Assembly (NCBI GenBank): GCA_009840135.1
Contig: VXOH01000159.1
Span: 2,095-66,094, forward strand
Origin: Chloroflexota bacterium
GTDB lineage: Bacteria > Chloroflexota > Dehalococcoidia > Lucifugimonadales > UBA3495
Length of the DNA: 64,000 bases
Direction of reading: 5' to 3'
The first letter of the stretch is position 1. Every line of letters begins with the position of its first letter. Of the stretch, positions 2,203 to 38,706 are shown piece by piece. The notes beneath the pieces are model-generated. The model did not search any database. It was not told where the DNA came from and saw only the letters and a list, made by a program, of their open reading frames with translations. The position numbers were made by a program, and so were the translations under genes.

Positions 2203-2900
2203 GCCGCACTTCCGTCGGCCTTGCGGCCCAGCCGCTCCAGAATTCTGGCCACCACCTGCTCTATAGTCAGGTCGCTGGTATCCAGAAGGAAGGCATCGGG
2301 CGCCTGGGCCAGGGGCGAGTCCTTGCGCTGGGAGTCTATCCGGTCCCTGGACAGGGCGTTGGCCAGTACCTCGTCGTAGTCGGCGGGCATTCCCTGGGCA
2401 ATCAACTCGTCGTAGCGGCGGCGTGCCCTGACTTCGGGCGAGGCAGTCATAAATACCTTGAGGCCGGCGTCAGGCAGGACCACCGTTCCGATGTCTCTTC
2501 CCACCATTACTATGCCTCCCATGTCCTGGCACGACCGTTCCGCAATGCTCCGCTGCTGCCTTACCATATCCCGCCGCACCCCCGAAACCGTGGACACCGG
2601 AGAAACGTGACGGTCAACTTCCGCCGTTCGCAGTTCGGGGCCCAATTCCCTGCCGCCCAGCAGGATGGTTCGCCCCTCCAGGTCATTGAGCTGCATGGGA
2701 GTGCCTTGCGCCAGTTGGGTCAACGCGTCGGAGTTGTCAATGGACACGGCTTCCTGGAGGGCGAGCCAGGTGACGGCCCGGTACATGATGCCGGTATCCA
2801 GGAAGGGACAGCCCAACCGCCGGGCCAGTTCCCTGCCCACCGCCGTTTTACCGGAGGCGACCTGGCCGTCAATGGCTATGGTTCCCGCTCGCTGGGTCAA
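2199..2900 (-). CDS. cmk: cytidylate kinase
   Basis: P-loop IAIDGQVASGKT, then FLDTGIMYRA. Start placed at TTG 2900 behind GGGAGAGG. The ORF stays open to 2960, so the start is uncertain. Confidence 0.85.
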   Translation of the reverse strand: MTQRAGTIAIDGQVASGKTAVGRELARRLGCPFLDTGIMYRAVTWLALQEAVSIDNSDALTQLAQGTPMQLNDLEGRTILLGGRELGPELRTAEVDRHVSPVSTVSGVRRDMVRQQRSIAERSCQDMGGIVMVGRDIGTVVLPDAGLKVFMTASPEVRARRRYDELIAQGMPADYDEVLANALSRDRIDSQRKDSPLAQAPDAFLLDTSDLTIEQVVARILERLGRKADGSAA

Positions 2901-3124
2901 GACCTCTCCCTGACAGCAATTCAGCCGGTATCGGACAGTTCCCCGGGGCACGTAGCCCAAATAAGAAGACGCCCAAATGAGAATGCTCCCTTAATTGGGA
3001 TGACAGTCTCACCAGGCGCAGGCAGTATAGCATAGGCGCTGCGGCCGCTCGGTACGGGGTGAGCCCCCAGCGGGCCTGCTGGTACACTGGGCGTGAAGCG
3101 CAAACCCCAACTTCACAATAGCGG

Positions 3125-3808
3125 TTGGTATCAATCAAAGGGGAGAATCTCACAGGCATGCTGTTTTCTTGCCGGAATGTGCTGCCCTGCGTTCTGGTTA
3201 CCATTACCCTCGCCGCAATCATCCTGGCCTGGGTCTATCCTGTTTGGCCCGGCGACGAGGAGATTCTATTAGCGATTCGGGAGTGGCGGAACCCCTTCCT
3301 TGACGGCGTGTTCCGAGCCCTGTCTTACCTGGGCTGGTATCCCGTGGCCACTACTCTTTGCCTGGTCGCCCTGCTGGCGCTTCTGGCGTTGCGACGCTGG
3401 CGGGACGGCCTGCTGCTGGCCCTGGTGGTTCTGTCGGCTGCCCCCGCCTACGGGCTGAAGGGGCTGATAGGCCGGGCCCGGCCTGATTACGCCATAATGG
3501 TTCCCACTCCCGACAGTTTTGGCTTCCCCAGCGGGCATGCCGCCTTCGCCATGCTGCTGGGCGGCTTCCTGATTTGCATGGCCTGGCAGCATGTGGGAAT
3601 TCCCTGGTTGCGGTGGGGGATTGCCGCCGGCTTGGCCCTTCTGGTATTGGGGGTGGGGACGTCCAGGATTTATTTGGGTGTTCACTGGCCCAGCGATGTT
3701 GCCGGAGGGTACCTGTACGGCGCCGCCGTATTGGCTGTGGCATTCAGGTTCAACGACGCTGTCAGGAATCGGATCGGCAGAATGCTGCGGGAAGACAACA
3801 CATTGTGA
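3125..3808 (+). CDS. PAP2-family membrane phosphatase
   Basis: All three PAP2 motifs present: KGLIGRARP, PSGH, SRIYLGVHWPSD. Multiple TM helices. Confidence 0.8.
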   Translation: MVSIKGENLTGMLFSCRNVLPCVLVTITLAAIILAWVYPVWPGDEEILLAIREWRNPFLDGVFRALSYLGWYPVATTLCLVALLALLALRRWRDGLLLALVVLSAAPAYGLKGLIGRARPDYAIMVPTPDSFGFPSGHAAFAMLLGGFLICMAWQHVGIPWLRWGIAAGLALLVLGVGTSRIYLGVHWPSDVAGGYLYGAAVLAVAFRFNDAVRNRIGRMLREDNTL

Positions 3809-3908
3809 AAATTGGTATATAATACGGTCAGACTCAGCATAACCCCCGGTTCCCCAACTCCCGGTTTCCCGACTTTGCACGTTTGGCGAGAAGGCCAATC
3901 CAGGTGAG

Positions 3909-4520
3909 GTGACGGTGGCTGGACAGGACCAAACCGGTCAATCCGTAGCGGATAAGAGTGGCCTAGGCTCCAATGGCCACCACCCCGAGGTGTCAACCGA
4001 CCGTGTCTTGAGTTCGCCGGTGCTGGTGTTGAACCTCAACTATGTTCCCATAAACGTATCCACCGTTCGTCGGGCCATAATCCTCGTCAGCAAGGGCAAG
4101 GCCGAACTTCTGGAGAACCACCGGGGCGAAGTCCGGACCGTATCCGCCATCGTTGAAGCTCCCTCTATCATCCGACTTGTTTACCTGGTAAAACGCCCCT
4201 TCGCCCCCCGCAAGCTCTCCAAGAAGGAGATATTCCTGCGGGACCAGTACACCTGCCAATACTGCGGGAAGAAGACCCAGGAACTGACCCTGGACCATGT
4301 GGTGCCCCGGCGGCAGAAGGGAGCCCATACCTGGGAGAACGTGGTGGCGGCCTGCAGCCGTTGCAATCTACGCAAGGCAGGACGCACTCCCGAAGAGGCC
4401 AACATGCGGTTGAAGACCCAGCCCCGGGTGCCGCAACCCAACCCCTACCGCATCCTTCAGAACCGCACCATCCTCGACGAGTGGCGGCCTTACCTGCCGT
4501 GGACGGATGACGATGACTGA
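3909..4520 (+). CDS. HNH endonuclease family protein
   Basis: CQYCGKK...LTLDHVVPRRQKGAHTWENVVAACSRCNLRK is a CX2C...DH...N...CX2C HNH core. Confidence 0.8.
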   Translation: MTVAGQDQTGQSVADKSGLGSNGHHPEVSTDRVLSSPVLVLNLNYVPINVSTVRRAIILVSKGKAELLENHRGEVRTVSAIVEAPSIIRLVYLVKRPFAPRKLSKKEIFLRDQYTCQYCGKKTQELTLDHVVPRRQKGAHTWENVVAACSRCNLRKAGRTPEEANMRLKTQPRVPQPNPYRILQNRTILDEWRPYLPWTDDDD

Positions 4521-6369: not shown

Positions 6370-6542
6370 ATTGCGGGCTCTTACCTCCGGCCCCTTGCCC
6401 GTGGTGGGGAAAGAAGTCGCTCACTCTTCAGGATTGGCCGGCTTCCTTCGTCAGGCTCAGGCGGAGCGGCTATGAACAGTAGCCCCGAAATTTATCGCTG
6501 CCCTCACCTATCCCACGAGTAGACGGCGATGGGCGAGGGTTG

Positions 6543-10698: not shown

Positions 10699-10765
10699 CG
10701 TCGTTCCGGACTTGATCCGGAATCCGGGGGCCGGCCCATAGATTCCGGCTTGCGCCGTAACGACG
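10699..10765. repeat. palindromic MITE-like repeat (TTCCGGA..TCCGGAA type)
   Basis: CGTCGTT ... AACGACG termini enclose TTCCGGACTTGATCCGGAATCC. Related short hairpins at 28877-28894 and 49690-49709. Confidence 0.55.
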
Positions 10766-10839: not shown

Positions 10840-12105
10840 TCACCCCAGGGCGCCCTGGTCCCGCCATTCCTGAATTTCCCCCTCGCCGAAGCCAAGCTCC
10901 TCCAATACTTCCCCGGTGTGTTGCCCCAGGGCCGGGGGATGCGTTGCTTCCAGAGGGGTTTCGCTGAACTTGGCCAGGGGGCCCACCATGCGCAGCGGGC
11001 CCACTTCCAAGTGCTCCAGCTCCGAAACCAGGTCGTTGGCCTGCACCTGCGGGTCGTCGAAGACCTCCTCAATGAAACGCACCGGCCCAGCGGGAATGCC
11101 CCGTTCGTCCAGCAGGGCCAGCCAGTCGGCGGCGGTGCGCTGCAGGAACGTTTCCTCCGCCTGCCGGACCAGCTCCGCACCAAAGGCCACCGATTCTTCG
11201 CTGCGCGGGTCGTAGCCGGGGTCAAAGCGAATGTCGGTCAGATTCAGCGTATCCAGCAGTCGCTGGCGCAGCGGGTCACTGAGGCAACCAACGGAAATCG
11301 CCCCGTCGGCGGTCTGGTAGCTGCGGTAGTAGATATTGCCCGGCGTAACGGGATGGTCCGATTCGTAAATCTTCAGGAGTTCGTCGTAAGGTATGCCCGC
11401 CCCGCGCATGGCGGCCAGAGATTCCAGGGTAGCCTGAAAATTTTCGCGGTCCAGCGACTCCACCTCGACAAAGCGCATACCCAGCAGGGCTATGGCCATC
11501 CCCAGCAGGGTGGTCTCCACCTTCTGGCCTTTTCCCGTCCGCTCCCGGTGGAACAGGGCGGCGCAGACGCACCAGGCCAGGCAGATGCCGGCGGAGGTGT
11601 CCACCATGGGTGAAGAGACGACGTGGACCGGAACGCCGTTGCTGGTCTTGCTCTCGGAGGTCATTATGCCGGACATCGCCTGCAGGATCAGGTCATAGCC
11701 CGGGCGGTAGGAGTCGGGGCCTTGCCGTCCGAAGGCGGTGTTTTCGCAGTAAATCAGCCGGGGGTTCAGCGCTGCCAGTGATTCATAGTCCACCCCCAGC
11801 TTGGCTGCCACGTCGGGGCGGTAGTTGACGATAGCCACGTCCATCTGCGGAATAAGGCGGCCCAGGATATCCCGTGCGGCTTCGGTAGTGAGGTCCAGGG
11901 TGATGCTGCGCTTGCCCCGGTTGTAGGCGATAAAGACGCGGCTCTCGGTGGGAGATATGGGCTGGGTGCCCCGCCAGGGATCGCCCCACGGTGGCTCCAC
12001 CTTGATAACATCGGCGCCCATATCGGAAAGGAGCATGCCGGCGAAGGGCCCGGCAATAATCTCGGTGAACTCGACAACCTTGACGCCGTCCAGCGGCCCG
12101 GGCAT
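10840..12105 (-). CDS. family III CoA-transferase (CaiB/BaiF)
   Basis: VKVVEFTEIIAGPFAGMLLSDMGADVIKVEPP N-terminal signature. Start ATG 12105 behind GGAGG. The ORF stays open to 12213. Confidence 0.85.
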   Translation of the reverse strand: MPGPLDGVKVVEFTEIIAGPFAGMLLSDMGADVIKVEPPWGDPWRGTQPISPTESRVFIAYNRGKRSITLDLTTEAARDILGRLIPQMDVAIVNYRPDVAAKLGVDYESLAALNPRLIYCENTAFGRQGPDSYRPGYDLILQAMSGIMTSESKTSNGVPVHVVSSPMVDTSAGICLAWCVCAALFHRERTGKGQKVETTLLGMAIALLGMRFVEVESLDRENFQATLESLAAMRGAGIPYDELLKIYESDHPVTPGNIYYRSYQTADGAISVGCLSDPLRQRLLDTLNLTDIRFDPGYDPRSEESVAFGAELVRQAEETFLQRTAADWLALLDERGIPAGPVRFIEEVFDDPQVQANDLVSELEHLEVGPLRMVGPLAKFSETPLEATHPPALGQHTGEVLEELGFGEGEIQEWRDQGALG

Positions 12106-12280
12106 GGCGAACCTCCGGGAAAATCTTGTCCCAGCATTGTACCCCCTGGGCGGTATGATGTCTTTGGCCGTGGGATTCCCCCAACTGAAAATCGGGGCTG
12201 GCAGGACTCCCATGCAGGTATCCCGACTGATATAATCATGCCTCGTGCTTTTTAGCTAATTAGTATCAGGAGAGAATCGA

Positions 12281-12622
12281 ATGAACAAGTACGTAGTCCT
12301 TTACTATGCGCCCATATCGGCCCTGGAAATGGTGCAAAATGCCACGCCTGAGGAAGTGAAAGCGGGCATGGAACCGTGGATAGCGTGGATGGCTCGCTGC
12401 GGGGATGCCCTGGTTGATCCGGGCGCGCCCCTGGGCGGAGGCTTGAATGTGTCTGCATCCGGGAGTTCGCCCAGCGACAAGAAAGTCACCGGGTACTCGA
12501 TACTCCAGGCGGACAATATGGAGGCAGCCCAAGCTCTGCTGGAGGGACACCCTCACCTGGGCTGGATGGATGGTTGCGAGGTCGAAGTACACGAGGCCAT
12601 ACAAATGCCCGGCCAGGAGTGA
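12281..12622 (+). CDS. YciI-like (dimeric alpha/beta-barrel) small protein, paralog 1
   Basis: MNKYVVLYY... and GYSILQADNMEAAQALLEGHPHL...CEVEVHE match the YciI-type N and C ends. AGGAGA RBS. Confidence 0.5.
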   Translation: MNKYVVLYYAPISALEMVQNATPEEVKAGMEPWIAWMARCGDALVDPGAPLGGGLNVSASGSSPSDKKVTGYSILQADNMEAAQALLEGHPHLGWMDGCEVEVHEAIQMPGQE

Positions 12623-12811
12623 GAAGTGTCGTGCTTTCTACGCAGGGTTTCGGGCCGGAAATCGTTTCAGGCTGCAATTTACCCGGTTGAGGTTGCACTG
12701 AAATTGCAGGGCCGGCCCTTGCGGCTGCCCTGGCTGATTCCGGCCTTACTTCCCGAAATGGAGCAACGCCGCGAATTGGTTGGCCTTTCTTTTCGGCGAT
12801 AGCGTTACACG

Positions 12812-12837
12812 CAGGGGCGGTTCGCGAACCGCCCCTG
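12812..12837. repeat. REP palindrome (variant core)
   Basis: CAGGGGCGGTTCGCGAACCGCCCCTG, a perfect hairpin. Confidence 0.8.
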
Positions 12838-12943
12838 ACCGTTGCGTTGTCCCTTTGTTCTCCTACTCTTTAACTTCAAAAGCCTGAACTGTAATATATG
12901 CAGGCCGGCTGCCAACCCCCTGATTTGCCGGCCGGGAGAAATT

Positions 12944-13291
12944 ATGAGCAAGTTCATAGTCATGTATCATGCGCGGGCCCCCTATATGCAGATGATGCAG
13001 GAAATGGGCGCTACCCAGGAGGATATGCAGGCCCAGATGCAAGCCTGGATGGAATGGGCGGGCCGCTGCGGCGACGTTTTGCCGGAAATGGGTGGCCCCA
13101 TGGTTGGAAATCTCAAGCTGACCAATGCAGGCAGTTCCGCCAGCGACAGGAATGTGGTCGGGTACTCGATACTGGAAGCCGAAAACATGGCAGGAGCCCA
13201 GGCTATTCTGGAAGACCATCCTCATTTCAAGCTGGACCCTTCCTGTGAGATAGAGGTCCACGAGGTAATGAATATGCCGGGCCAGGGCTGA
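12944..13291 (+). CDS. YciI-like small protein, paralog 2
   Basis: MSKFIVMYH...GYSILEAENMAGAQAILEDHPHF...CEIEVHE is colinear with the 12281 ORF. ATG 12944 behind GGGAGA. Confidence 0.5.
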   Translation: MSKFIVMYHARAPYMQMMQEMGATQEDMQAQMQAWMEWAGRCGDVLPEMGGPMVGNLKLTNAGSSASDRNVVGYSILEAENMAGAQAILEDHPHFKLDPSCEIEVHEVMNMPGQG

Positions 13292-13386
13292 TCGACCCGA
13301 CCTGATTTCCACCTGGGGCTGGCCACCCGGAAGTTCACGTGGCCTTGTAGCGGAATACCCTGTATGTTATCCTGATTACCTGTTGT

Positions 13387-13463
13387 CGGGGCGTGGCGCA
13401 GCCCGGAAGCGCACCTGCATGGGGTGCAGGGGGTCGCCGGTTCAAATCCGGCCGCCCCGACCA
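13387..13463 (+). tRNA. tRNA-Pro (anticodon GGG), CCA encoded
   Basis: Hand-folded cloverleaf: acceptor CGGGGCG/CGCCCCG, D-arm GCGC-AGCCCGGAA-GCGC, anticodon arm CCTGC-ATGGGGT-GCAGG, T-arm GCCGG-TTCAAAT-CCGGC, discriminator A, CCA. Confidence 0.9.
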
Positions 13464-13479
13464 TCTACAGTTACTACTT

Positions 13480-13671
13480 ATGCCCTCCATCAAAGTCCGT
13501 GAAGCCATTCGAATCGTTGAGCAAGATGGGTGGTTTCAAGTACGTATTAGCGGAGACCACCGCATCTTCCACCATCCTGTTAAACGAGGAAGTGTAACTA
13601 TCCCCGGAAGGCTGGGAGGTGATCTGGATGCATGGCTGTGGTCCAGTATTCGCCGTCAAGCCCAGATGTAG
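13480..13671 (+). CDS. hicA: HicA-family mRNA interferase toxin
   Basis: 63 aa. EQDGWFQVRISGDHRIFHHPVKRGSVTIPGRLGGDL is the HicA (YcfA) signature, including the catalytic His. Confidence 0.8.
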   Translation: MPSIKVREAIRIVEQDGWFQVRISGDHRIFHHPVKRGSVTIPGRLGGDLDAWLWSSIRRQAQM

Positions 13672-13681
13672 GATCAATGAG

Positions 13682-13936
13682 ATGAAGTACGCCATAGTCT
13701 TGGTTCCGGGACCTGAGAACTGGGGAGCTTTTTCTCCAAATGTGCCAGGGTGTGTGGCGATTGGCGATACGCCGGAAATGGCCTTGGGGAGTTTTAGGGA
13801 AGCCTTGGAATTTCACTTGGAAGACCTCAAGGAGCAGGGCCTTCCAGTTCCTGAAGAGTACACCAGTCCCGAAGAAGAGCATCCTGACGGGGTATACCTG
13901 CCGTGGGCCAGGGTGGATACCGCGGTAAAAGTGTAA
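13682..13936 (+). CDS. hicB: HicB-family antitoxin (short form, no obvious DNA-binding domain)
   Basis: MKYAIVLVPGPENWGAFSPNVPGCVAIGDTPEMALGSFREALEFHLE is the HicB N-terminal fold pattern. Confidence 0.75.
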   Translation: MKYAIVLVPGPENWGAFSPNVPGCVAIGDTPEMALGSFREALEFHLEDLKEQGLPVPEEYTSPEEEHPDGVYLPWARVDTAVKV

Positions 13937-13959
13937 GATACAGACCCAGGTGATGGACA

Positions 13960-13992
13960 GTGAAAGGCCGGTCGACTTGACCGGCCTTTCAC
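13960..13992. terminator. bidirectional terminator hairpin between convergent hicB and ADH genes
   Basis: GTGAAAGGCCGGTC-GACTT-GACCGGCCTTTCAC, a 14-bp perfect stem. Confidence 0.6.
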
Positions 13993-14044
13993 TCCGTGCG
14001 GGCTCTTGGTGACGGCTACGAGCTAACTATAGTTTTTGCGAGGT

Positions 14045-15079
14045 TCATGCTCCCGACTGCAGCACAATTCTCCCCAGCGGCGGGCTTTCCCTCAGTTTAG
14101 CCAGGGCCTGTTCCACTTCCTGCAGCGGGTAGGTTTCCGACACCACCGGCTTAATTTTCCCCTGTTCCACCAGCTTGACCACCTCCACCACGTCCTGCAG
14201 GTTGGAGGCCCGGGTGCCCAGGATGCTCCACTGGCCGTAGATCAGGTCCGCTGTGTCCACCGCCAGGGGGATGCCGTAGTTGTAGCCCAGGATCACCAGC
14301 CTGCCGCCCAGCTTCAGGCAGGCCAGGCTGTCGGGCAGGACGGCGGCCACCGCCTCGCCGCCTACTCCTTCAACCACCACGTCGGCCCCAAGGCCATTGG
14401 TCAATTCCCTCACCCGCTCGGGCAGGCTTTCCGTCCGGCTGTTGACGATAACGTCGGGGTTGAACTGCTCGGCGCCGAGCAGCTTGTCAGGCACTACATC
14501 GGCGGCGATGACCCGGGCGCCCATGAGGCTGGCCATCTGCATGGCGTGGATGCCCAGGCCGCCAATGCCGATGATGACCACCGTTTCCCCGGGCTGGACC
14601 CTGGCCCGGTGGGTCAGGGCATGGTACACGCTGGCCATGGCGTCGGGGATGATGGCCGCTTCTCCCCAGGGGACTTCGGGGGAAATCTTGACGGCGTTGC
14701 GGCCCGACACCCGCATGAACTCGCTGAAGCCCCCGTTAATCTCAAAGCCGGTGCGGGGCGCGGTGACGCAGTAGTTCTCCATGCCCTTGCGGCAGTAATC
14801 GCAGAAACCGCAGCCCTCGGTGGGGTAGCAGGTTACGTGGTCACCCTGCTGCAGGCCCGGAACCTCGGCCCCGACCTCTACCACCTCTCCGGCTGCCTCG
14901 TGGCCGGGTATATGTGGGAGGGGCACCGTGGGAACCAGGCCGCCGGTAATCTTCAAATCGGTGGCGCACAGCCCGTTGGCCACCACCCGGATCAGCACGT
15001 CCGAGGGCCCGATTTCCGGTTCCCGCACGTCTTGCCAGTTCAGGGGAGCGTTGTGTTGCTCCAGTACCATTGCTTTCAT
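14045..15079 (-). CDS. zinc-dependent alcohol dehydrogenase (MDR family)
   Basis: GLCATDLK, GHEAAGEVVEVG, CDYC structural-Zn region, GIGGLG NAD fold. Confidence 0.85.
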   Translation of the reverse strand: MKAMVLEQHNAPLNWQDVREPEIGPSDVLIRVVANGLCATDLKITGGLVPTVPLPHIPGHEAAGEVVEVGAEVPGLQQGDHVTCYPTEGCGFCDYCRKGMENYCVTAPRTGFEINGGFSEFMRVSGRNAVKISPEVPWGEAAIIPDAMASVYHALTHRARVQPGETVVIIGIGGLGIHAMQMASLMGARVIAADVVPDKLLGAEQFNPDVIVNSRTESLPERVRELTNGLGADVVVEGVGGEAVAAVLPDSLACLKLGGRLVILGYNYGIPLAVDTADLIYGQWSILGTRASNLQDVVEVVKLVEQGKIKPVVSETYPLQEVEQALAKLRESPPLGRIVLQSGA

Positions 15080-15155
15080 CTGGGTGGTTTCCTTTGGTAG
15101 TGGTTAATGGTTTCCAGCCTTCTTGACGGCAAATGCTATTTCAATCTGCTTGCCA

Positions 15156-15665
15156 CCGCTCATCCTGAGCTTGTCGAAGGATTACATTGCAGGGAAGGTG
15201 TAGACGAAAGAGACTCCTGTCCCGCTCATCCTGAGCTTGTCGAAGGATGCCCTCCATACTACGTTCTGTCTTTCCTGCCTCGTGACAGCTGAACCAGAGT
15301 TTTCCAACTTCCTTCGATCAATGCTTCTTTCTTGGCCCTTGACCAGCCCTTGATTTGCCGCTCTCGTTGGAAGGCTTCCTCCCGGGTGAAAAACTGGTCC
15401 GAAAACACCAAGGATACCGGGCGCCGGGAAAAGGTATGGCCGCTCACTTCACCACGGTTGTGGCCTTCAAGACGGGCTTCTAGGTTGTCCGTATGCCCGG
15501 TGTAGTATGAACCATCTGAGCATTTCAGGATGTATACGTAGAAGGCCAATGTCCTGACTCCATTTCACATCCTTCGACAAGCTCAGGATGAGCGGGTATG
15601 TGGTGGGGACTGTCTCTTGTTTGTCTGAGTTTCCTGCCATCCTTCGACAAGCTCAGGATGAGCGG
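15156..15665. mobile_element. GIY-YIG gene cassette bounded by nested perfect 27-bp inverted repeats
   Basis: CCGCTCATCCTGAGCTTGTCGAAGGAT at 15156-15182 and 15222-15248. Its exact reverse complement lies at 15569-15595 and 15639-15665. Confidence 0.7.
15259..15549 (-). CDS. GIY-YIG nuclease family protein (UPF0213/YhbQ-like)
   Basis: FYVYILKCSDGSYYTGHTDNLEARLEGHN...RERQIKGWSRAKK. TTG start with GGAG 7 nt upstream. Confidence 0.8.
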   Translation of the reverse strand: MAFYVYILKCSDGSYYTGHTDNLEARLEGHNRGEVSGHTFSRRPVSLVFSDQFFTREEAFQRERQIKGWSRAKKEALIEGSWKTLVQLSRGRKDRT

Positions 15666-15707
15666 TGAACGTTTTTTCCACACATGGCGAGAATGCCAGA
15701 GCTCCCC

Positions 15708-17612
15708 CTAATCCTCCAGCGTCGTAATATCTCCCGGGTCCAGGCCCAGTTCGTTGGCTTTCAGCAGGCGGCGCATGATTTTGCCCGAGCGCGTCTTGGG
15801 CAGGGCTGGAGTGAACTCGATCTCGGCAGGGACGGCGATGGGGCCCAGGACGCCGCGGACGTGGTTGCGCAGGGTGTCAATCATCAGGTCCGACGGGTCA
15901 TTGCCTACTCGCAGGGTTACGAAGGCTTTTATCACCTCGCCCCTCAGTTCGTCGGGCTTGCCGATTACCGCCGCCTCGGCTACCGAAGGGTTGGACACCA
16001 GGGCGCTTTCCACTTCCGCTGAACCGATGCGGTGGCCGGCCACGTTGAGCACGTCGTCGGCGCGGCCCACCACCATGTAGTAGCCGTCGGCGTCACGGAG
16101 GGCCACGTCGCCGGAGGAGTACACGCCCGGAATCTGGTTCCAGGTGTCGTTGTAGCGGTCGGGATCGCCCCATACGGTGCGGGAGAAGTGGGGGAAGGGA
16201 CGCCGGATGACCAGGAAACCGCCCTTGTCCGGTTCTTCAATGGGCTGGCCCTCCCGGTCCACTATGTCCATCAGCGCGCCAGGCAGGGGTTTTCCCACGC
16301 GCCCGGGGCGGGTTTCCATGGTGGCCATGGTGCCCAGGCAGGGGCCGCCGGTCTCGGTCTGCCACCAATTGTCCACGATGTGCGCCCACTCGCCGCTGCC
16401 GCAGATGTGCTCGTTGGCCCAGCGCAAAGCCTCGGGATTGAGCGGTTCTCCCGCGCAGGTAAGGAAGCGCAGGGAGCGCAGGTTGTACTGTTTGGCCGGT
16501 TCCTCGCCGTAGCGCATGAGCATCCGCACGGCGGTGGGGGCAGTAAATATGACGTTGACTCCGTACTTCTCGATGATTTCGTAGAAGACGGCGTTGTGGG
16601 GGTAGTCTGGGGCGCCCTCGCGGAAGACGGTGGTGGCCCCGGCCACCAGGGGCGCGTAAACGATGTAGCTGTGGCCCACCACCCAGCCGATGTCGGACAT
16701 GCACCAGAAGACGTCGTTGTCCTTGACGTCCCAGAAGTTCTTGAAGTGGTAGTGGGTGCCCACCATGTAACCGCCGTGGACGTGGACCACACCCTTGGGC
16801 TTGCCGGTGGTGCCGCTGGTGTACAGGATGTAGAGGGGGTCTTCGGCGTCCATAACCTCGGCTTCGCAATTGATGGACTGGCCGGCCAGCAGTTCCTCGA
16901 AGTCCACCTGCCCGTCCTTCAGGTCCTCGCGAGCCATTTCCCTTCGCCAGACCAGTACGGAAGTCAGGGAGTCGCAGCCCTCCACCGCCTCGTTGGCGAT
17001 GCCGATGAGGTCAACCTTGTTGCCGCGACGATAGCCCACGTCGCCGGTAATCAACAGCTTGGCCGCCGCGTCCTGGATGCGGTCCCGCAGGGAGCCGACG
17101 CTGAAACCGGCATATACCACGCTGTGGATGGCGCCGATGCGGGCGCAGGCCAGCATGGTAATGGCCCCCTCGGGGGTCAGGGGCATGTAAATGACGACGC
17201 GGTCGCCCTTGCCAATGCCCAGGGACTTGAGCCCGTTGGCGCAGCGGTTCACCTGCTGGGCCAGGCGGGCGTAGGTATAGACCTGCTCCGTGCCGTCCTC
17301 GCCCAACCAGATGAGGGCCGCCTTGTTGCGACGCTCGGTGGCCAGATGGCGGTCCAGGGCGTTATAGCAGATGTTGGTCTGCCCGCCGACGAACCACCGG
17401 AAGTTGGGGTATTCCCACTGGAACACCTGGTCCCAGCGACGGAACCAGTGGAGCCCCTCGGCGGCCTCGGCCCAGAAGCCCTCGGGGTCCTCGATGGAAC
17501 GGGCGTAAGTAGCGTCGTAGTCCTGCAGCGCCGCCTGCGCCGAAACATGGGGCGGCGCGGGTATTTCGCCGGATTCGCGAAGAAGGTTGTCAATCTGGCC
17601 TTGCTGAACCAT
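15708..17612 (-). CDS. acs: acetyl-CoA synthetase
   Basis: YTSGTTGKPKG AMP-binding motif and full-length Acs-like colinearity (WWQTETG, SGHRIG-type block, PKTRSGKIMRR). Start ATG 17612 behind AAGGAG. Confidence 0.9.
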   Translation of the reverse strand: MVQQGQIDNLLRESGEIPAPPHVSAQAALQDYDATYARSIEDPEGFWAEAAEGLHWFRRWDQVFQWEYPNFRWFVGGQTNICYNALDRHLATERRNKAALIWLGEDGTEQVYTYARLAQQVNRCANGLKSLGIGKGDRVVIYMPLTPEGAITMLACARIGAIHSVVYAGFSVGSLRDRIQDAAAKLLITGDVGYRRGNKVDLIGIANEAVEGCDSLTSVLVWRREMAREDLKDGQVDFEELLAGQSINCEAEVMDAEDPLYILYTSGTTGKPKGVVHVHGGYMVGTHYHFKNFWDVKDNDVFWCMSDIGWVVGHSYIVYAPLVAGATTVFREGAPDYPHNAVFYEIIEKYGVNVIFTAPTAVRMLMRYGEEPAKQYNLRSLRFLTCAGEPLNPEALRWANEHICGSGEWAHIVDNWWQTETGGPCLGTMATMETRPGRVGKPLPGALMDIVDREGQPIEEPDKGGFLVIRRPFPHFSRTVWGDPDRYNDTWNQIPGVYSSGDVALRDADGYYMVVGRADDVLNVAGHRIGSAEVESALVSNPSVAEAAVIGKPDELRGEVIKAFVTLRVGNDPSDLMIDTLRNHVRGVLGPIAVPAEIEFTPALPKTRSGKIMRRLLKANELGLDPGDITTLED

Positions 17613-17650
17613 GGTGTTGCTCCTTTGGGGGATTCTTTGGTTACTTGCGA

Positions 17651-18226
17651 TTATGTTTTGCTCGATTGGGGATTCAGTTCGTCTTGGGCCCATTCCAGGG
17701 GGTTGTTGACGATGTATTTTCTTATGGTATCAAGTTCGGTTTCGTTGCGAATGATGCGTTCGTAGTAATTGCGTTGCCAGACAGGTTGGCTTGGAGTGCC
17801 CCGCATCAGGTTGATCTGTTTGGTTGCGGCGGACTTGAAACCGGCGATTATGGAGCCAAGAGATTTTGGTGCTCGACTGATGCCTGTTGGGCGTTTGTGG
17901 GGTAGGGGCGCACGGCCGTGCGCCCCTACGTGGGCAGCACTGGCGCCTGCACCATTTCCCGTAATCACGATTATGCCGTGGATATGGTTGGGCATTACTT
18001 GAAACACATCCAACTCTATCTCTTGGCGTATCTGGGAGGTTCGGGTCCATTCTTCAAACACAGTCAGCCCGAAGCTGTTGAGGATCATTGTACCGTCCAC
18101 GATCTCACCAAACAGACACGTCCTATTCTGTGTGCAAATGGTAACGAAATAGGCCCCTGCCTGCGCGTAGTCATAATTCCTCAGGCGAATGGAACGGCGG
18201 CGGCGGTCGTTGCTGTGAATGTTCAT
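17651..18226 (-). CDS. REP-associated tyrosine transposase (RAYT, IS200/IS605-like Y1 HUH)
   Basis: HUH motif MPNHIHGII and catalytic-Tyr block WQRNYYERIIRN. The ORF stays open to GTG 18250. Contains a REP copy in frame. Confidence 0.75.
   Translation of the reverse strand: MNIHSNDRRRRSIRLRNYDYAQAGAYFVTICTQNRTCLFGEIVDGTMILNSFGLTVFEEWTRTSQIRQEIELDVFQVMPNHIHGIIVITGNGAGASAAHVGAHGRAPLPHKRPTGISRAPKSLGSIIAGFKSAATKQINLMRGTPSQPVWQRNYYERIIRNETELDTIRKYIVNNPLEWAQDELNPQSSKT
17902..17929. repeat. REP palindrome inside the RAYT ORF
   Basis: GTAGGGGCGCACGGCCGTGCGCCCCTAC, translated as VGAHGRAPLP in the RAYT frame. Confidence 0.85.
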
Positions 18227-18240
18227 ATTGGCTGGGGCCA

Positions 18241-18266
18241 GGGCAGACACGTAGGTCTGCCCCTAC
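18241..18266. repeat. REP-like palindrome (GCAGAC core) at the RAYT 5' end
   Basis: GGGCAGAC-ACGTAG-GTCTGCCC-CTAC. Confidence 0.6.
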
Positions 18267-18454
18267 CGATGGGTGTTTTCATTTACCAGCGTTGCATCTG
18301 TAGCAACGGCGCCTATATTCTAACCTTGCCTTACGGGTGGGACAATGTTTGGATGACACAGAGAATGATATATGGCATTCTATGGTAACGAATTGCGCCA
18401 CGCATTGATTGGTAAATATTCCAATAGCGGGTGCATGAGGACGGGAGCGTAACC

Positions 18455-18497
18455 ATGCCGTTAGATGACTTGGTCAAGGTAATCGAAACCCTCCAGC
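18455..18497 (+). pseudogene. 5' fragment (codons 1-14) of a transposon-disrupted restriction-endonuclease-like gene
   Basis: ATG 18455 behind GGGAG encodes MPLDDLVKVIETLQ, then runs into the transposon IR. Confidence 0.8.
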
Positions 18498-18522
18498 GGT
18501 TCCGTTGAGTTAGTGTTGGGTA

Positions 18523-19596
18523 GTGTATAATGCCCCTGTGGTATCTAGCAACTACATACAAGTTACCCGGCAAGCGGTTAGCTGTCCATATTGTGGCCAC
18601 TCCAAGATAGCGAAGTGGGGCAGCACGAAAGGCGGCAACCAGCGTTACCGGTGTTCCTCGAAAGAGTGCGGTCGGTCGTTCCTCGACACCGGGGCATTGA
18701 ACGGTTACCGGGTTCCCGCCGAGCAAATCGGTGCGGCAATCGGAATGTACTACCGGGGGATGTCCTACAAGCAAATCGGCGAGCAAATGGCCGACGCCTA
18801 CGATATGGACGAACCCGACAAGCGGGCAATTTATGAATGGGTGAGAGACCATTCGGAGGTTGCCGCCGAAGCAATGAAGGATTACCCGGCCCATACATCG
18901 GGCAAGTGGGTTGCCGACGAAATGCAGGTCAAGGTTGGCGGAGAGAACCTCTGGAACTGGAACGTAATGGACGCCGATACAAGGTACGTGCTGGCATCTC
19001 ACCTTTCCCCCAACCGAGACCAGATGGCAGCCGTTGCCGTGATGGAGAAGGCCGCCGCCGCCGCCGATGGGCCACCCAAGTCAATCACCACTGACAAGCT
19101 GCGCAGTTACGGGCCGGCCATTAAGAAAGTCTTTCCCCAAGCCGAGCATATCCAGTCCGAGGGACTGAAGGCCGAGATAAACAACAATATGTCGGAACGG
19201 CTGCAAGGAACCTTCCGGCAACGGGAAAAGACGTTGCGGGGTCTGGAAGGTCTGGAATCGGGGCAACGTTACCTTGACGGCTGGGTAGTCAATTACAATC
19301 TCTTCAAGGAACACGAAGGCGTTGATTACCAGACCCCGGCGGAAATGGCAAAGGTGAAGCCGCCCTTCACGGAATGGGCGGACGTGGTGAGAAATGCGCC
19401 GGCCTTGCAGGAAAGCAGGAAGGGCAAAGCGACTCCCTCGCTGGCCGATGTTGCCGACAAAGCGGCCCGGCCGAGCCCGGCTACCGCCCCAAAGACTACC
19501 TTTTTCATTCCCGATTCAACGGCCCGGCGCAGGCCGAAAGGCGAGAGGGAATCGGACGACCCGGACGACTTGCCTTTCTTATTCCGGCCCCGGTGA
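18523..19596 (+). CDS. DDE transposase, IS6/IS26-like with N-terminal zinc finger
   Basis: CPYCGH...RYRCSSKEC finger. DDE blocks ADEMQVKVGGENLWNWNVMDADTRYVL, SITTDKLRSYGPAI, NNNMSERLQG. Exact start uncertain (GTG 18523 or 18538). TTGAGT-15-TATAAT lies in or next to IRL. Confidence 0.7.
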   Translation: MYNAPVVSSNYIQVTRQAVSCPYCGHSKIAKWGSTKGGNQRYRCSSKECGRSFLDTGALNGYRVPAEQIGAAIGMYYRGMSYKQIGEQMADAYDMDEPDKRAIYEWVRDHSEVAAEAMKDYPAHTSGKWVADEMQVKVGGENLWNWNVMDADTRYVLASHLSPNRDQMAAVAVMEKAAAAADGPPKSITTDKLRSYGPAIKKVFPQAEHIQSEGLKAEINNNMSERLQGTFRQREKTLRGLEGLESGQRYLDGWVVNYNLFKEHEGVDYQTPAEMAKVKPPFTEWADVVRNAPALQESRKGKATPSLADVADKAARPSPATAPKTTFFIPDSTARRRPKGERESDDPDDLPFLFRPR

Positions 19597-32155: not shown

Positions 32156-34954
32156 TTGAACAGCAACCTGGATAGTGCGGCTTTGACCGACGGCTTTGGC
32201 GGCTTTGAACAGTCCCTGCACCTGCTGGAATTCGACCAGATAAGGCACAGGCTGGCCGGCTTTGCCCGCACCCAGCTGGGCAAGGACCTGGCCCAGACCC
32301 TGGAGCCGGTCGCCGATGCCCTGGAAATCGGTTCGCGCCTCCAGGAAACTGACGAGGCCCGTTTCTTCCTGGACTCCGGCGGCAGTCTGGAGTTCGGGCC
32401 CGGCGCCGACCTGCGCGAGTACGTCCACCGCGCCATGCTGGGCGGCTCACTGCGGGGCGAAGAGCTGCACGAAATTCGCCTGTTGGCCGGGGCTGCCAGC
32501 TTCAGCCGGGACGCTCTCCACCGCCGGGAGGACCTGCCCCTGCTGTCCGGCATAGCCTCCAACATCCCCAACCTGTCGGGCCTGGAGCAGGCCATTGCCC
32601 GGGCCATCAGCCCCGCCGGAGAGATCCTGGACGACGCCAGTCCCGACCTGCGCCAGTTGCGCCGCGACTCCAGGTCAGCCTATCAGCAACTTAACGAGGT
32701 GATGCAGCGCAGCCTCCGCCGCTACCAGCGGCGCGCCGTCGTCCAGGAACCTATAATCACCCAGCGCAATGGGCGGCTGGTGCTTCTGATTAAGGCCGAG
32801 CACAAGTCCCAGACACCGGGCATCGTCCACGACGTCTCCGACAGCGGGGCCACCGTCTTCATTGAGCCCCTGCCTGCCATTGAGACGGGCAACCGCTGGC
32901 GCGAGACCCGCCTGGCCGAGGAACGGGAAGAGGAGCGGGTGCTCCGGACCCTGGCCTCCCAGGTAGGGGAGGCCGGCGACGACCTGCAGCTGGCCCTGGA
33001 CTTGCTGGCCCGGCTGGACCTGGCCATGGCCAAGGGCCGTTACTCCGCCGACCGGCGGGCGGTGGCGCCCTCCGTAAAGGCCGTAGCAACATCCTTCGAC
33101 AAGCCCCGGCCCGGGGAGAGTCGAGGCACAAGACACATCAGGGGTGATGAGGAAAATAGCCCTCCACCTTCCCCTTCTCCGTCCGCTTCCGCCTCTGCCC
33201 CCGCTCCCGCTTCTCCCCCCGCTCGTGGTGAGCCCGTCGAACCACGCCTCCGCATCGTCGGGGCCCGCCATCCCCTGCTCACCGACCGGGTGGTGCCCAT
33301 CAGCCTGGACCTGGGCGGTGGCAACCGGGTGATGGTAATTACCGGCCCCAATGCCGGTGGCAAGACGGTAGCCCTCAAGACCGTCGGCCTGCTGGCCCTC
33401 ATGGCTCATGCCGGCCTGCACGTGCCCGCCGAAGCCGCTGATTTTCCACTGCTGGACGGTATTTTTGCCGATATCGGCGACCAACAGAGCATTGAGCAGT
33501 CGTTGTCTACCTTCAGTTCTCATATCCAGAATTTGCGGTCCATTCTGGACCGGGTTACCTCGGACTCCCTGGTATTGATTGACGAGCTGGGAACCAGCAC
33601 CGACCCCGAGGAGGGAGCCGCCCTGGCCCAGGCCATCCTGGGGCGCCTGCGCTCCCTGGATGTGATGACCATCGCCACCACCCACCACCGGGGCGTGGCC
33701 CGCTACGTGCAGGAACAGTCCGGCATGGTAAATGCCAGCGTTGACCTGGACCCGACCACCCTGGAGCCCACCTACCGGATTACCCTGGGCCTGCCGGGTC
33801 GCAGCTATGCCCTTACCATCGCCGACCGCCTGGGCCTGGATGCGGAAATCCTGGATGAGGCCCGCTCCCTTATCGCGCCCTCCCAGCGGGCCACCGACGA
33901 TCTCGTACAGGAGTTGCAGGAAGAACGGGCGGTGGTGGCCCGTCTGAGGCAGGAATCCGAGGATCTGTTGTCCCGCGCCCGCGTCCAGCAGGCCGAGACC
34001 GAGGCCAGGCTGGCCACCGTGGAGGCCTCCCGCCTGGAGCTGGTGGAAGAAGCCCGACAGGACTTGCAGAAACGCATCGGCGGGCTGCTGACCCAGCTGC
34101 AGCAGGCCGAGCGCGCCGCCGAACATGCCGAGGCGGAGCAGGCGGCCCGCCGATTGATGCGCCCGTCCCCTGGCGCTCCTGCCCGTGACCCTGCCCGTGA
34201 CCCTGGGAGAGATTCGGGCAGCAGTTCCAACCGGGGCTTGGGCAGAAACCCCGGCAATACTCCCGGAGCAGAGCGTTTTCGCGCCTACCAGGAGGATTTG
34301 GCCCAGTTCCAGAAAGAATTGAGCTCCACCCAGTGGGAACCGATAGAGGTGGAACGCCCCCCCTGGCAGCAGGAGTTAAGTAGCGGGGATCGCGTATACA
34401 TCAGGGGCATCCCCCGTCCCGTGGAGGTGATCTCGCCCCAGGACGAGGATGAGCATATCGAGGTGCTGCTGGGTACCATGCGGGCCCGGATTCCCGTTTA
34501 TCAGCTGGAACGCCCCGCCGACTCCGGCCTGCCCCAGGAGTCCGGACAGACTCAGGGAGCCGGACAGCCTGTGGGCACGGCGGGCCAGCGACCCGGGACC
34601 GAATCCCTTGAATCATTGCCGCCTGCGGGAGGATTGGACCCCAATTCTCCCGGGGTGCGGTTCCGTCACAACCGCGACGCCGGAGTCTATTACCGCCGTC
34701 CCTCCCTGCGGCAGGTCAAGACCGACCTGGACCTGCGGGGTAATCGGGTGGACGAGGCCCTGGACAAGGTGGAAACTCTCCTCAACGAAGCTGCCCTCAG
34801 CGGCGTGCCTGAAGTACGCATTATCCACGGCCAGGGCACCGGCGCCCTGCGGCGTGCCGTACGGGAGTTCCTCCGCGGCCACCCCCTGACCTCATCATCG
34901 GGCCCCGATCACGAGACCTCCAACGACGGGGTCACCATAGTCGAGCTGAAATAA
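32156..34954 (+). CDS. mutS2: endonuclease MutS2 (MutS domains, ABC ATPase, KOW-like region, C-terminal Smr)
   Basis: LLEFDQIRHRL start, ARHPLL, Walker A ITGPNAGGKT, LIDELGTSTDP, Smr block LDLRGNRVDEAL...IIHGQGTGALR. Two low-complexity inserts. Confidence 0.9.
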   Translation: MNSNLDSAALTDGFGGFEQSLHLLEFDQIRHRLAGFARTQLGKDLAQTLEPVADALEIGSRLQETDEARFFLDSGGSLEFGPGADLREYVHRAMLGGSLRGEELHEIRLLAGAASFSRDALHRREDLPLLSGIASNIPNLSGLEQAIARAISPAGEILDDASPDLRQLRRDSRSAYQQLNEVMQRSLRRYQRRAVVQEPIITQRNGRLVLLIKAEHKSQTPGIVHDVSDSGATVFIEPLPAIETGNRWRETRLAEEREEERVLRTLASQVGEAGDDLQLALDLLARLDLAMAKGRYSADRRAVAPSVKAVATSFDKPRPGESRGTRHIRGDEENSPPPSPSPSASASAPAPASPPARGEPVEPRLRIVGARHPLLTDRVVPISLDLGGGNRVMVITGPNAGGKTVALKTVGLLALMAHAGLHVPAEAADFPLLDGIFADIGDQQSIEQSLSTFSSHIQNLRSILDRVTSDSLVLIDELGTSTDPEEGAALAQAILGRLRSLDVMTIATTHHRGVARYVQEQSGMVNASVDLDPTTLEPTYRITLGLPGRSYALTIADRLGLDAEILDEARSLIAPSQRATDDLVQELQEERAVVARLRQESEDLLSRARVQQAETEARLATVEASRLELVEEARQDLQKRIGGLLTQLQQAERAAEHAEAEQAARRLMRPSPGAPARDPARDPGRDSGSSSNRGLGRNPGNTPGAERFRAYQEDLAQFQKELSSTQWEPIEVERPPWQQELSSGDRVYIRGIPRPVEVISPQDEDEHIEVLLGTMRARIPVYQLERPADSGLPQESGQTQGAGQPVGTAGQRPGTESLESLPPAGGLDPNSPGVRFRHNRDAGVYYRRPSLRQVKTDLDLRGNRVDEALDKVETLLNEAALSGVPEVRIIHGQGTGALRRAVREFLRGHPLTSSSGPDHETSNDGVTIVELK

Positions 34955-35783: not shown

Positions 35784-35962
35784 AGGCTGTTACCGAATTC
35801 CCCCCAAAGGCCCTTCCCCTGTCGCGGGGATGGTCAGGGTGTTGGTGAACGGGATGCAGGCGATTCGTTTAAGCGCAACTTGCCTGTTTTGAACCAGTAT
35901 CCGGCTGCCATCGTCCCCCGCGCCGATACAGGGCCTTTTCAAAGTTGGGAAAAGCGGATTTG

Positions 35963-36034
35963 CCCGCTCATCCTGAGCCTGTCGAAGGATGCCACCGAAC
36001 CGGGAGATGGTTCGACAAGCTCACCATGAGCGGG
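35963..36034. repeat. gene-less hairpin (MITE-like) derivative of the GIY-YIG-cassette inverted repeat
   Basis: CCCGCTCATCCTGAGCCTGTCGAAGG (35963-35988) faces GGTTCGACAAGCTCACCATGAGCGGG (36009-36034). Confidence 0.75.
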
Positions 36035-36127
36035 TGACAGTTGACTTTGGAAAGACTCCCGCCCCGCCAGGGCCGCCATTGATACCCGACGGTCAGGAAT
36101 GTTATTCTTGGGAAACTGGGAACGGCG

Positions 36128-38704: not shown

Positions 38705-38706
38705 TA

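Follow-up and report, generated by a model that had tools for sequence, protein, structure and literature searches.

A small GIY-YIG nuclease gene enclosed by inverted repeats

The 64,000-nt stretch of Chloroflexota DNA analysed here (hereafter the window) carries a gene for a 96-amino-acid (aa) GIY-YIG protein that is enclosed on both flanks by inverted copies of a hairpin repeat. By analogy with Ssn, a described group of small GIY-YIG nucleases (~94 aa) whose genes are flanked by hairpin repeats termed NTS or SRM (Chenal et al. 2025, Nat Commun 16:2388, PMC11893778), the protein is most likely an Ssn-like site-specific single-stranded DNA (ssDNA) endonuclease and the repeat its recognition element. 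The gene (15259–15549, minus strand, TTG start) is the single credible open reading frame (ORF) between the repeats, as a preliminary description of this DNA had claimed, and its product matches the Pfam GIY-YIG family PF01541 over residues 3–74 (E = 7.9e-18; 65 bits, cut-off 22.6). The repeat was first noted as a 27-mer, CCGCTCATCCTGAGCTTGTCGAAGGAT, with two perfect copies per flank, and all four are indeed present without mismatches, at 15156–15182 and 15222–15248 on the plus strand and at 15569–15595 and 15639–15665 on the minus strand. No such copy is expected by chance (100 shuffles), and a fifth copy with one mismatch lies at 35964–35990.

The outer and the inner pair of units around the gene each form a 29-nt perfect inverted repeat (outer pair CACCGCTC...GGAT; inner pair CCCGCTC...GGATG). 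On the upstream side, the inner unit located by the 27-mer search (15568–15596, minus strand, CCCGCTCATCCTGAGCTTGTCGAAGGATG) is in forward orientation relative to the gene, stops 18 nt short of the start codon and contains a local hairpin in which CATCCT and AGGATG enclose an 11-nt loop; a spacer (15597–15637, minus strand) separates it from the outer upstream unit found by the same search (15638–15667, minus strand, CACCGCTCATCCTGAGCTTGTCGAAGGATG). On the downstream side, the inner unit (15221–15249, plus strand) is reversed relative to the gene and lies 10 nt past the stop codon, followed by a spacer (15183–15220, plus strand) and the outer unit (15154–15182, plus strand). Measured between the 27-mers, the spacers are 39 and 43 nt long, and the upstream one resembles, by eye, a diverged inverted copy of 15183–15220, the two being ~70% alike after reverse-complementing one of them. 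That the 27-mers are identical while the spacers look diverged suggests selection or gene conversion acting on the units themselves.

A putative ribosome-binding site, GGAG (15558–15561, minus strand), is read from the sequence in front of the TTG codon, as previously proposed, at a spacing of 8 nt and not the 7 nt given at the time; GGAG followed by 8 nt and ATG likewise occurs in the related loci L001 and L204 (loci from other records carry L numbers throughout). The neighbours named in the preliminary description, acs (acetyl-CoA synthetase) and a Zn-type alcohol dehydrogenase gene (ADH), flank the cassette and lie on the same strand as the GIY-YIG gene. A promoter scan detected none belonging to the GIY-YIG gene itself, and a terminator scan returned a single weak terminator-like site, no more than expected by chance.

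Anatomy of the repeat unit

Three parts make up each unit. Its 5′ arm is conserved and reads CCGYTCR (CCGCTCA or CCGTTCG), its short stem covaries, and its loop of 11–13 nt, TGAGCYTGTCGAA, is conserved, asymmetric (T-GAGCYTGTCGA-A) and nearly invariant. Among 150 distinct units taken from the unbiased metagenome sample described below, the four stem pairs adjoining the loop are paired in 95–99% of cases; one stem pair is an invariant T-A closing pair, and the others change identity together, with UA 62, CG 50, GC 21 and UG 12 at one position, CG 84/GC 55 at another and CG 123/GC 25 at a third. Covariation of this extent was reached in none of 500 shuffles, and shifted registers scored far lower. 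The combination of a nearly invariant loop with a freely covarying stem that closes it suggests that the enzyme reads the loop.

Only about a fifth to a quarter of the units have a complete outer stem; in the others, the inverted partner unit supplies the complement of the 5′ arm. Partner units often differ in their inner triplets, with each difference compensated locally, and what is kept in this way is two small hairpins and not one long perfect palindrome. Hammerhead-like and tRNA T-loop-like readings of the loop were dropped as unsupported, each being a partial string resemblance, and so was a reading of the cassette as an invertible DNA segment, for want of a recombinase.

Association of nuclease and repeat across genomes

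A pattern-based scan of one genome per species yielded 80 loci encoding relatives 57–80% identical to the window protein, and thus 81 loci with the window, from Dehalococcoidia, other Chloroflexota, Sphingomonadaceae, Betaproteobacteria, Nitrospiraceae (Nitrospira), Binatia, Syntrophobacteria, Dependentiae and others. The core of the unit, GAGCYTGTCGAA, stands in forward orientation within 150 nt upstream of the gene at 55 of the 81 loci (median 39 nt before the start codon) and in reversed orientation just downstream at 56 (median 18 nt after codon 92). Where units stand on either side, they run forward then reverse across the gene at 46 of 53 loci, and a median of 303 nt separates them. Flanking of other GIY-YIG relatives by the repeat had been set beforehand as a check on the idea, and it is found: the canonical core is present on at least one flank at 66/81 loci and on both at 45/81, and 11 of the 15 loci without it carry inverted hairpins with variant loops (such as TGAGGTATCGAA, TGAGCGGAGYCGAA and TGAGGCWCTCGAA) or loop insertions, which brings the flanked orthologues to 77/81. 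These loop variants track protein subclades, each of the sister pairs L030/L041, L033/L039, L032/L058 and L053/L073 sharing one. At the 81 loci, units also become sparser with distance from the gene, from a density of 5.9 per kb inside 150 nt to one of 0.05 per kb farther out than 1 kb. Nuclease and repeat are specifically associated.

The units also leave a trace in the annotated proteins, as some homologues end in C-terminal tails (...PSTSSGRT..., ...LRQAQDER...) that seem to be the translated downstream unit. At two loci the gene stands next to long arrays, with ~20 units, many at 44-nt spacing, in L061 (~1880–2985) and spacings of roughly 95–155 nt in L064 (~2600–4200); these are not CRISPR arrays, because the spacers repeat along with the units.

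The constrained distance of the forward unit to the start codon would also suit an element acting in RNA. On such a reading the forward unit in the 5′ untranslated region and the reversed unit behind the stop codon would act in the mRNA, where a 27–29-nt pairing between them encloses the ORF, in RNase protection or exposure or in translational autoregulation, and the genomic copies would be mRNA stabilisers or terminators similar to repetitive extragenic palindromic (REP) sequences. With no promoter of its own detected and the gene co-directional with its neighbours, the units are probably transcribed (the co-directional trend of neighbour strands is weak, and crude ORF calling is unreliable in GC-rich DNA, where it placed ADH on the wrong strand). 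Covariation alone cannot separate RNA from ssDNA, and genes of the related UPF0213 family stand in operons with tRNA/rRNA methyltransferase genes. Against an action in RNA, many loci have different inner triplets in the upstream and downstream units, so that their mutual pairing is weakened while the local hairpins are kept; gene-less units occur in both orientations; no T-run follows the units; and Rfam returned nothing relevant, either in a gathering-threshold scan of the whole window or in an E-value scan of 15100–15720. SsnA, moreover, does not bind RNA (PMC11893778). We regard a role at the RNA level as very improbable.

Gene-less copies of the repeat

Elsewhere in the window, a hidden Markov model (HMM) built from related units finds about seven gene-less relatives of the 27-mer. 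All four sites previously listed as such (35963–36034, 38707–38836, 51111–51149 and 55421–55447) reappear with nhmmer or on inspection of the sequence, and units absent from that list add to them. The first of the four is an intergenic inverted pair composed of a forward unit, an 18-nt spacer and a reversed unit, with inner stem triplets TCC/GGA in one partner and TGG/CCA in the other, each compensated locally; as ssDNA, this pair folds at −23.1 kcal/mol (z = −5.3). At the second site, a full hairpin unit identified with the HMM (38749–38783, plus strand) adjoins a reversed unit whose loop is interrupted by ~21 inserted nt (38784–38836), at the third a degenerate unit gives a weak match (51116–51150, minus strand, nhmmer E = 0.055), and the fourth (plus strand) is a short-loop variant, GTCATCCTGAGTGAAGCGAAGGATC, whose 5′ arm GTCAT is by eye the same as in the published NTS. 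The additional units comprise CCCGCTCGTGGTGAGCCCGTCGAACCACG at 33219–33247 (plus strand, nhmmer E = 1.5e-5), its partial reversed partner at 33090–33114 (E = 0.018) and a degenerate unit at 6442–6470 (minus strand, E = 0.0011). Loop insertions like that at 38784–38836 are also seen in the upstream regions of L052, L065, L069 and L077, several of the inserts resembling another unit; with one unit apparently nested in another, the loop itself could be a preferred point of insertion or recombination.

To sample the repeat without reference to the gene, metagenome contigs were scanned with a DNA pattern, which gave 120 loci with 222 units in 636 kb. The nuclease is encoded at two of these loci, and four units lie within 150 nt of its gene, the other 218 (~98%) being farther than that from any such gene. 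Neighbouring units are predominantly inverted (+− 48 and −+ 27 versus ++ 1 and −− 5), and 65 units are isolated. The 148 ORFs next to gene-less units match 210 Pfam families, none of them seen more than three times, and no transposase is found among the 25 most frequent families listed; judged by these neighbouring ORFs, the units have no other partner protein. In a plasmid collection of 7.3 Gb, units match at 245 places in all, to be compared with the 0.05 per kb seen beyond 1 kb from the gene at the 81 loci, and are multi-copy and intergenic on secondary replicons of Comamonas, Sphingobium and Novosphingobium, and the gene is found in 14 records only, mostly large replicons and several of them megabase-sized; as a test of co-occurrence, this collection gives agreement at the level of taxa only.

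A different candidate partner lies 2 kb from the GIY-YIG gene, where a 199-aa ORF (17651–18250, minus strand) shows a weak match to Y1_Tnp (IS200/RAYT-like, E = 1.9e-5). As REP-associated tyrosine transposases (RAYTs) are the known partners of REPs, this nearby Y1 transposase might be the real partner of the 27-mers, the GIY-YIG gene merely lying among the repeats. The 27-mers do not flank this ORF, however, which carries a different, GTAG-tagged palindrome; Y1_Tnp is absent from the most frequent families among the 148 neighbours of gene-less units, and the association with GIY-YIG genes holds at 77 of 81 loci across phyla. A Y1 partner therefore appears exceedingly improbable. The palindrome inside the ORF is a perfect one of 28 bp (GTAGGGGCGCACGG/CCGTGCGCCCCTAC, 17902–17929), related GTAG-type palindromes lie near 49737–49760 and 51090–51102, and the genome may also carry a classical REP/RAYT system. 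A DDE transposase gene (rve/DDE_Tnp_IS240, ~18523–19549, taken from the gene list of L203) adjoins the RAYT-like ORF.

Fold and relatives of the protein

The AlphaFold2 model of the 96-aa protein (pLDDT 92) predicts a compact GIY-YIG fold with a C-terminal helix, forming one domain. Y6, Y15/Y16, G18, R26, H30 and E63 are invariant among 30 homologues; we take the catalytic roles of Y6, Y15/Y16, R26, H30 and E63, the last as the metal-binding Glu, to be those assigned after I-TevI and UvrC, and the active site is predicted to be intact. No NCBIfam family matched the protein. Among structures in the PDB, phmmer finds the UPF0213 proteins 1zg2 (2e-15) and 1ywl (1.7e-12), which Foldseek, queried with the model, also ranks first and second, followed by Slx1 chains at 2.3–2.6 Å over ~70 residues.

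For comparison with the published family, a reference set was assembled by scanning viral contigs for the exact NTS consensus, which recovered six GIY-YIG genes, each preceded by a forward NTS at ~15 nt from the start codon and followed directly behind its stop by a reversed NTS, an architecture identical to that of the window; a seventh NTS-type gene, in L060, is flanked by SRM-type repeats. The seven SsnA-like proteins, all from genes flanked by NTS-type repeats and six of them by the exact consensus, served as proxies for N. meningitidis SsnA. To these the window protein is 36–40% identical (42–52 bits), and within its own clade 56–82% (106–155 bits). The published search took Ssn proteins to be shorter than 150 aa, with E < 1e-10 and at least 75% coverage against SsnA CAX49033.1, and considered flanking repeats within 500 bp (PMC11893778). 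In tblastn searches the NTS-flanked proteins find the window gene at 1e-11 to 6e-8 over ~80–90 residues in a database of 64 kb, values that we estimate to be ~50 times weaker at genome scale; with these proxy queries and that estimate, the window protein is borderline and probably falls short of the E < 1e-10 cut-off. On inspection, a C-terminal K-x-W-x-R-A-x-K...LI motif is common to the window clade and the NTS-flanked Ssn proteins; at the same place, UPF0213 proteins have K-K-L-T-R and lack K-G-W-S-R-A-K-K. As judged from these comparisons, the window protein belongs to a sister clade of the NTS-flanked Ssn proteins that is closer to UPF0213/YazA, and cd10456-like UPF0213 proteins are indirectly indicated as its nearer relatives.

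UPF0213, which includes YazA of B. subtilis, BH0048 of B. halodurans (1zg2), EF2693 of E. faecalis (1ywl) and YhbQ of E. coli, thus includes the solved structures nearest to the window protein as well as its top-scoring relatives in sequence, and together with Slx1 it has the GIY-YIG core and the size in common with the window protein. It differs in its trmNF-yazA-rsmI context in Firmicutes, the window clade having a separate position and context. In the Firmicute loci L208, L209 and L210 yazA overlaps the upstream tRNA methyltransferase gene trmNF, and in B. subtilis and Radiobacillus, not in Enterococcus, it overlaps the downstream rRNA methyltransferase gene rsmI too; this leaves no intergenic space for flanking repeats, so that the flanking-repeat architecture is specific to certain clades. 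In L205, a Sphingomonas replicon, the window-clade gene stands between nrdR and a gene annotated as RNA methyltransferase and overlaps the latter, so that a link of UPF0213 or window-clade genes to RNA methyltransferases recurs in the Firmicute yazA loci and here.

Comparison with the Ssn family

In N. meningitidis, SsnA has 94 aa and a single GIY-YIG domain of CDD cd10448 (GIY-YIG_unchar_3), and its gene is flanked by the hairpin repeat NTS, CGTCATTCCCGCGMAVGCGGGAATCYRG, of which there are hundreds of copies (PMC11893778). SsnA binds and cuts NTS as ssDNA only, on one strand and upstream of the hairpin, and acts on neither double-stranded DNA (dsDNA) nor RNA; binding and cutting restricted to ssDNA, to a single strand and to a position upstream of the hairpin were biochemically shown for four Ssn homologues (PMC11893778). 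In vivo, SsnA reduces the integration of NTS-bearing transforming DNA, and restriction of incoming ssDNA during natural transformation is the only function shown for a relative of the window protein (PMC11893778). When the degenerate SRM pattern was used, a repeat flanked 71% of homologues on one side or more and 42% on both; of the genomes containing over 200 SRMs, 81% had a gene for an Ssn homologue; and Sphingomonas is named as repeat-rich (PMC11893778). The authors likened NTS-ssnA-NTS to an insertion sequence and to RAYT/REP/BIME/IS200 systems and proposed domestication (PMC11893778), and a literature search for later papers on Ssn found none. The preliminary description knew of no described mobilisation system of this kind, which is outdated given the report of Chenal et al. 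2025 (PMC11893778), and its central idea is not new because that paper had published it; its comparison with REP/RAYT fits, the same analogy having been drawn there.

The window system has much in common with this family. Its protein, with 96 aa, is a single GIY-YIG domain in the range of ~94–100 aa; its gene is bracketed by inverted hairpin repeats, forward before the start codon and reversed after the stop, with two perfect units per side within 120 nt; many gene-less, mostly intergenic copies of the same repeat exist; and repeat variants track protein variants. By eye, the units of both types also have a conserved orienting 5′ arm (CGTCAT in NTS, CGCTCAT/CGTTCGT here) and an outer stem TCC...GGA. 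The window host differs in being a Dehalococcoidia-like Chloroflexota bacterium. In 1.05 Mb of NTS-selected DNA only one unit of the window type was found, and the two repeat types are largely separate. Hairpins resembling NTS do lie in the window, at 49686–49713 (plus strand; e.g. CGTCGTTCCCGCGCAGGCGGGAACCTCG, within five mismatches of the Neisseria NTS consensus) and at ~10700–10765; an NTS-type ssnA gene is absent from the window, despite the presence of these hairpins beside those of the 27-mer type.

Inheritance and turnover

Taxonomy is broadly reflected in a neighbour-joining tree of the 81 proteins, and the position of the gene is conserved within clades: it lies directly downstream of acs in the window, L001 and L002, with ADH next in the window and L001, between rnc and era in several Sphingomonadaceae, as read from the flanking sequences, and in front of a gene read as mutS2 in L007, L013 and L022. 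Synteny is kept among orthologues that are 72–80% identical and across Sphingomonadaceae, and the gene is low-copy, with one extra paralogue in 460 kb of flanks. It is mostly inherited vertically. The only other record with an identical protein, L203, is 100% identical to window positions 11259–19549.

The repeats around the gene are less constant. The number of flanking units varies among the syntenic acs-linked loci of the window, L001 and L002; in L002 an ORF read as HicB-like follows the GIY-YIG cassette directly in place of ADH, a sign that the surroundings of the cassette have been rearranged locally. In the window, a HicB-like antitoxin ORF (13619–13936, plus strand) and a tRNA gene (13387–13460, plus strand, Rfam 57 bits) lie just beyond ADH. 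In L204, a homologue with 86% protein identity has the same layout, with two forward units ahead of the gene and two reversed ones behind it, and different genes downstream. Gene-less units turn over as well: L201, which has the same gene order and an 86% identical PD40 protein, lacks the gene-less units of the window in the orthologous intergenic regions, and neither it nor the orthologous L202 (74%) has units there, both being too diverged to define insertion boundaries. Two of these regions of L201 (2992–3232 and 5667–5947, orthologous to window 35783–36128 and 38704–39024) contain hairpins read as NTS-type, GTTCCTGCGAAGGCAGGAAC and GTTCCCGCCTTCGCGGGAAC, and equivalent slots between genes seem to be filled by different families of hairpins.

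Such turnover would fit a mobilisation in the manner of REPINs or MITEs (miniature inverted-repeat transposable elements), the GIY-YIG enzyme copying or moving the gene-less inverted pairs and the gene-bearing unit being an autonomous or a domesticated master copy. Consistent with it are the ~50-to-1 excess of gene-less over gene-linked units, mainly inverted pairs, their place among unrelated housekeeping genes, the differences between the window and L201, the recurrence of the whole cassette in L204, the variable number of flanking units, the multi-copy units on secondary replicons without the gene, and the domestication hypothesis that Chenal et al. likewise raised (PMC11893778). On the other side, a search for direct repeats bracketing the cassette mostly returned further units and revealed no recurrent target-site duplication or conserved insertion site, the filled and empty sites of the window and L201 are too diverged to compare at nucleotide level, the gene is low-copy, largely vertical and syntenic, and mobilisation is shown for no Ssn. 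GIY-YIG enzymes cleave DNA by hydrolysis, without a covalent intermediate, and are not known to perform strand transfer; an enzyme of this chemistry could not rejoin strands on its own, which also counts against mobilisation. The evidence here and in PMC11893778 does not establish the earlier designation as candidate autonomous partner of a MITE family, with target-site duplications not found and the gene low-copy and mostly vertical. We hold mobilisation to be conceivable yet doubtful, and it can coexist with an Ssn-like function, because it concerns the biological role and not the chemistry.

In two loci only is the cassette bracketed by a duplicated end of a host gene. L007 has a perfect 38-bp direct duplication (2914–2951/3341–3378) of the 5′ end of the downstream gene read as mutS2, and in L013 an upstream fragment (~970–1010) differs from the resident gene (~1455–1505; 28 of 30 aligned positions identical) and is by eye closer to the L007 version. 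These duplications may be a trace of insertion or transfer of the cassette. They also bear on a homing-type selfish gene, in which a free-standing endonuclease would cut 'empty' inverted pairs and be copied into the spacer by recombinational repair, the hairpin repeats existing for other reasons: the L007-like upstream copy in L013 is as a co-conversion tract would be, the gene sits exactly at the spacer position of a forward/reversed pair, and homing endonucleases are frequent among GIY-YIG enzymes. A homing gene that has hundreds of potential targets in each genome should, however, be multi-copy, and we find one extra copy in 460 kb and two genes in 636 kb of DNA selected for units; synteny is kept as described above, the protein has no separate DNA-binding domain, and its characterised relatives do not cut dsDNA (PMC11893778). 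Homing appears as improbable as an action in RNA, and these two readings, like that of a RAYT partner, are unlikely.

A probable Ssn-like nuclease and its proposed recognition hairpin

We consider it probable that the window locus pairs an Ssn-like ssDNA nuclease with the hairpin it recognises, and that it belongs to a sister clade with a repeat type outside the published SRM pattern. This reading builds on the anatomy of the units, their conservation and covariation, the homology of the protein and a pairing of nuclease and repeat that is clade-specific, as seen from the flanking counts, the fall-off in density, the tracking of protein subclades by loop variants and the single unit in 1.05 Mb of NTS-selected DNA. 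Further arguments for it are a layout identical to that of the NTS-flanked genes, an intact predicted active site in a fold nearest to structure-specific nucleases, the lack of any other partner protein among the ORFs next to gene-less units, the Firmicute yazA genes with no space for hairpins beside them, and the biochemistry published for four Ssn homologues (PMC11893778).

On the analogy of SsnA, we infer ssDNA binding, strand specificity, the position of the cut and the cellular role. When DNA becomes single-stranded, in replication, repair, transformation or conjugation, the enzyme would bind the small hairpin together with its 5′ arm, on one strand only, and cut the phosphodiester backbone a few nucleotides upstream. 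As the units come in inverted pairs, both around the gene and without it, each DNA strand would have one cleavable site per pair. At loci marked by units, the system might keep incoming or exposed ssDNA in check, as SsnA does in N. meningitidis, or might maintain and spread the repeat family, a role compatible with the former.

Several observations weigh against this reading. The unit of the window, with a stem of 4–6 bp and a loop of 11–13 nt, differs from NTS with its 8-bp stem and 4-nt loop, and as ssDNA a lone unit is marginally stable, folding weakly at −3.8 to −6 kcal/mol (z ~ −1.4). The published SRM pattern, HGTCWYN(0-2)YYVSBRHN(0-5)WNVSBRGN(0-2)RNCYNB, gives zero hits in the window; the 27-mer, units of the CCGTTCG type and the short-loop variant all fail to match it, the canonical NTS being matched as positive control. 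The protein scores higher against UPF0213/YazA-type proteins (39–49% identity, 58–75 bits) than against the NTS-type set, and in the Firmicute yazA loci examined the UPF0213 genes have no flanking repeats. The published biochemistry covers four Ssn homologues, none of them from the window clade, and the co-occurrence of clade and repeat at genome level was tested in one direction only.

A further-reaching interpretation, which we advance tentatively and regard as possible but not likely, is that the window clade represents a second GIY-YIG lineage outside cd10448 and nearer to UPF0213/Slx1, with a recognition element of its own that spans phyla and owes its specificity to the conserved loop of 11–13 nt and not to the stem, and that its enzyme may spread the gene-less pairs.

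Relation to other repeat-associated nucleases

The arrangement resembles REP/RAYT systems in that a low-copy, vertically inherited nuclease gene has at least two inverted palindromic repeats on both sides, gene-less repeats are abundant as inverted pairs, enzyme and repeat co-evolve and, as we infer for the window system, hairpins are recognised in ssDNA. It differs in the unrelated fold and chemistry of the enzyme, GIY-YIG hydrolysis here versus a covalent phosphotyrosine intermediate in HUH/Y1 enzymes, in the lack of a GTAG tetranucleotide in the window units, and in a loop conserved across phyla, REPs being typically species-specific. With IS200/IS605 TnpA and MITEs the system has in common subterminal hairpins read as ssDNA and short non-autonomous derivatives with inverted ends; in IS200/IS605, however, both hairpins lie on the same strand, whereas here they lie on opposite strands, and we find no target-site duplication, no fixed target and no transposase chemistry. 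Unlike GIY-YIG homing endonucleases, which join the nuclease to a separate DNA-binding domain and whose genes are multi-copy or sporadic at a defined dsDNA target, the window protein is single-domain and its gene low-copy and syntenic within clades, and unlike Slx1, which requires Slx4 and acts on branched dsDNA, it would act on ssDNA hairpins.

Both the association of small GIY-YIG nucleases with hairpin repeats and the analogy with REP/RAYT had been published before, so that the general picture is unchanged. If the Ssn-like reading is correct, the Ssn principle would extend to a distinct clade in Chloroflexota, Sphingomonadaceae, Betaproteobacteria, Nitrospira, Binatia and others, and to a repeat type unmatched by the published SRM pattern; a class of very common 'junk' repeats would be explained, as would the spurious peptide tails on homologues. 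As site-specific ssDNA nucleases are in development as molecular tools, a different mode of recognition would be useful. Should the window clade indeed form a second lineage, the partnership of small GIY-YIG nucleases with hairpin repeats would be broader and older than the published family, and would provide a new, easily re-targetable ssDNA cleavage specificity.

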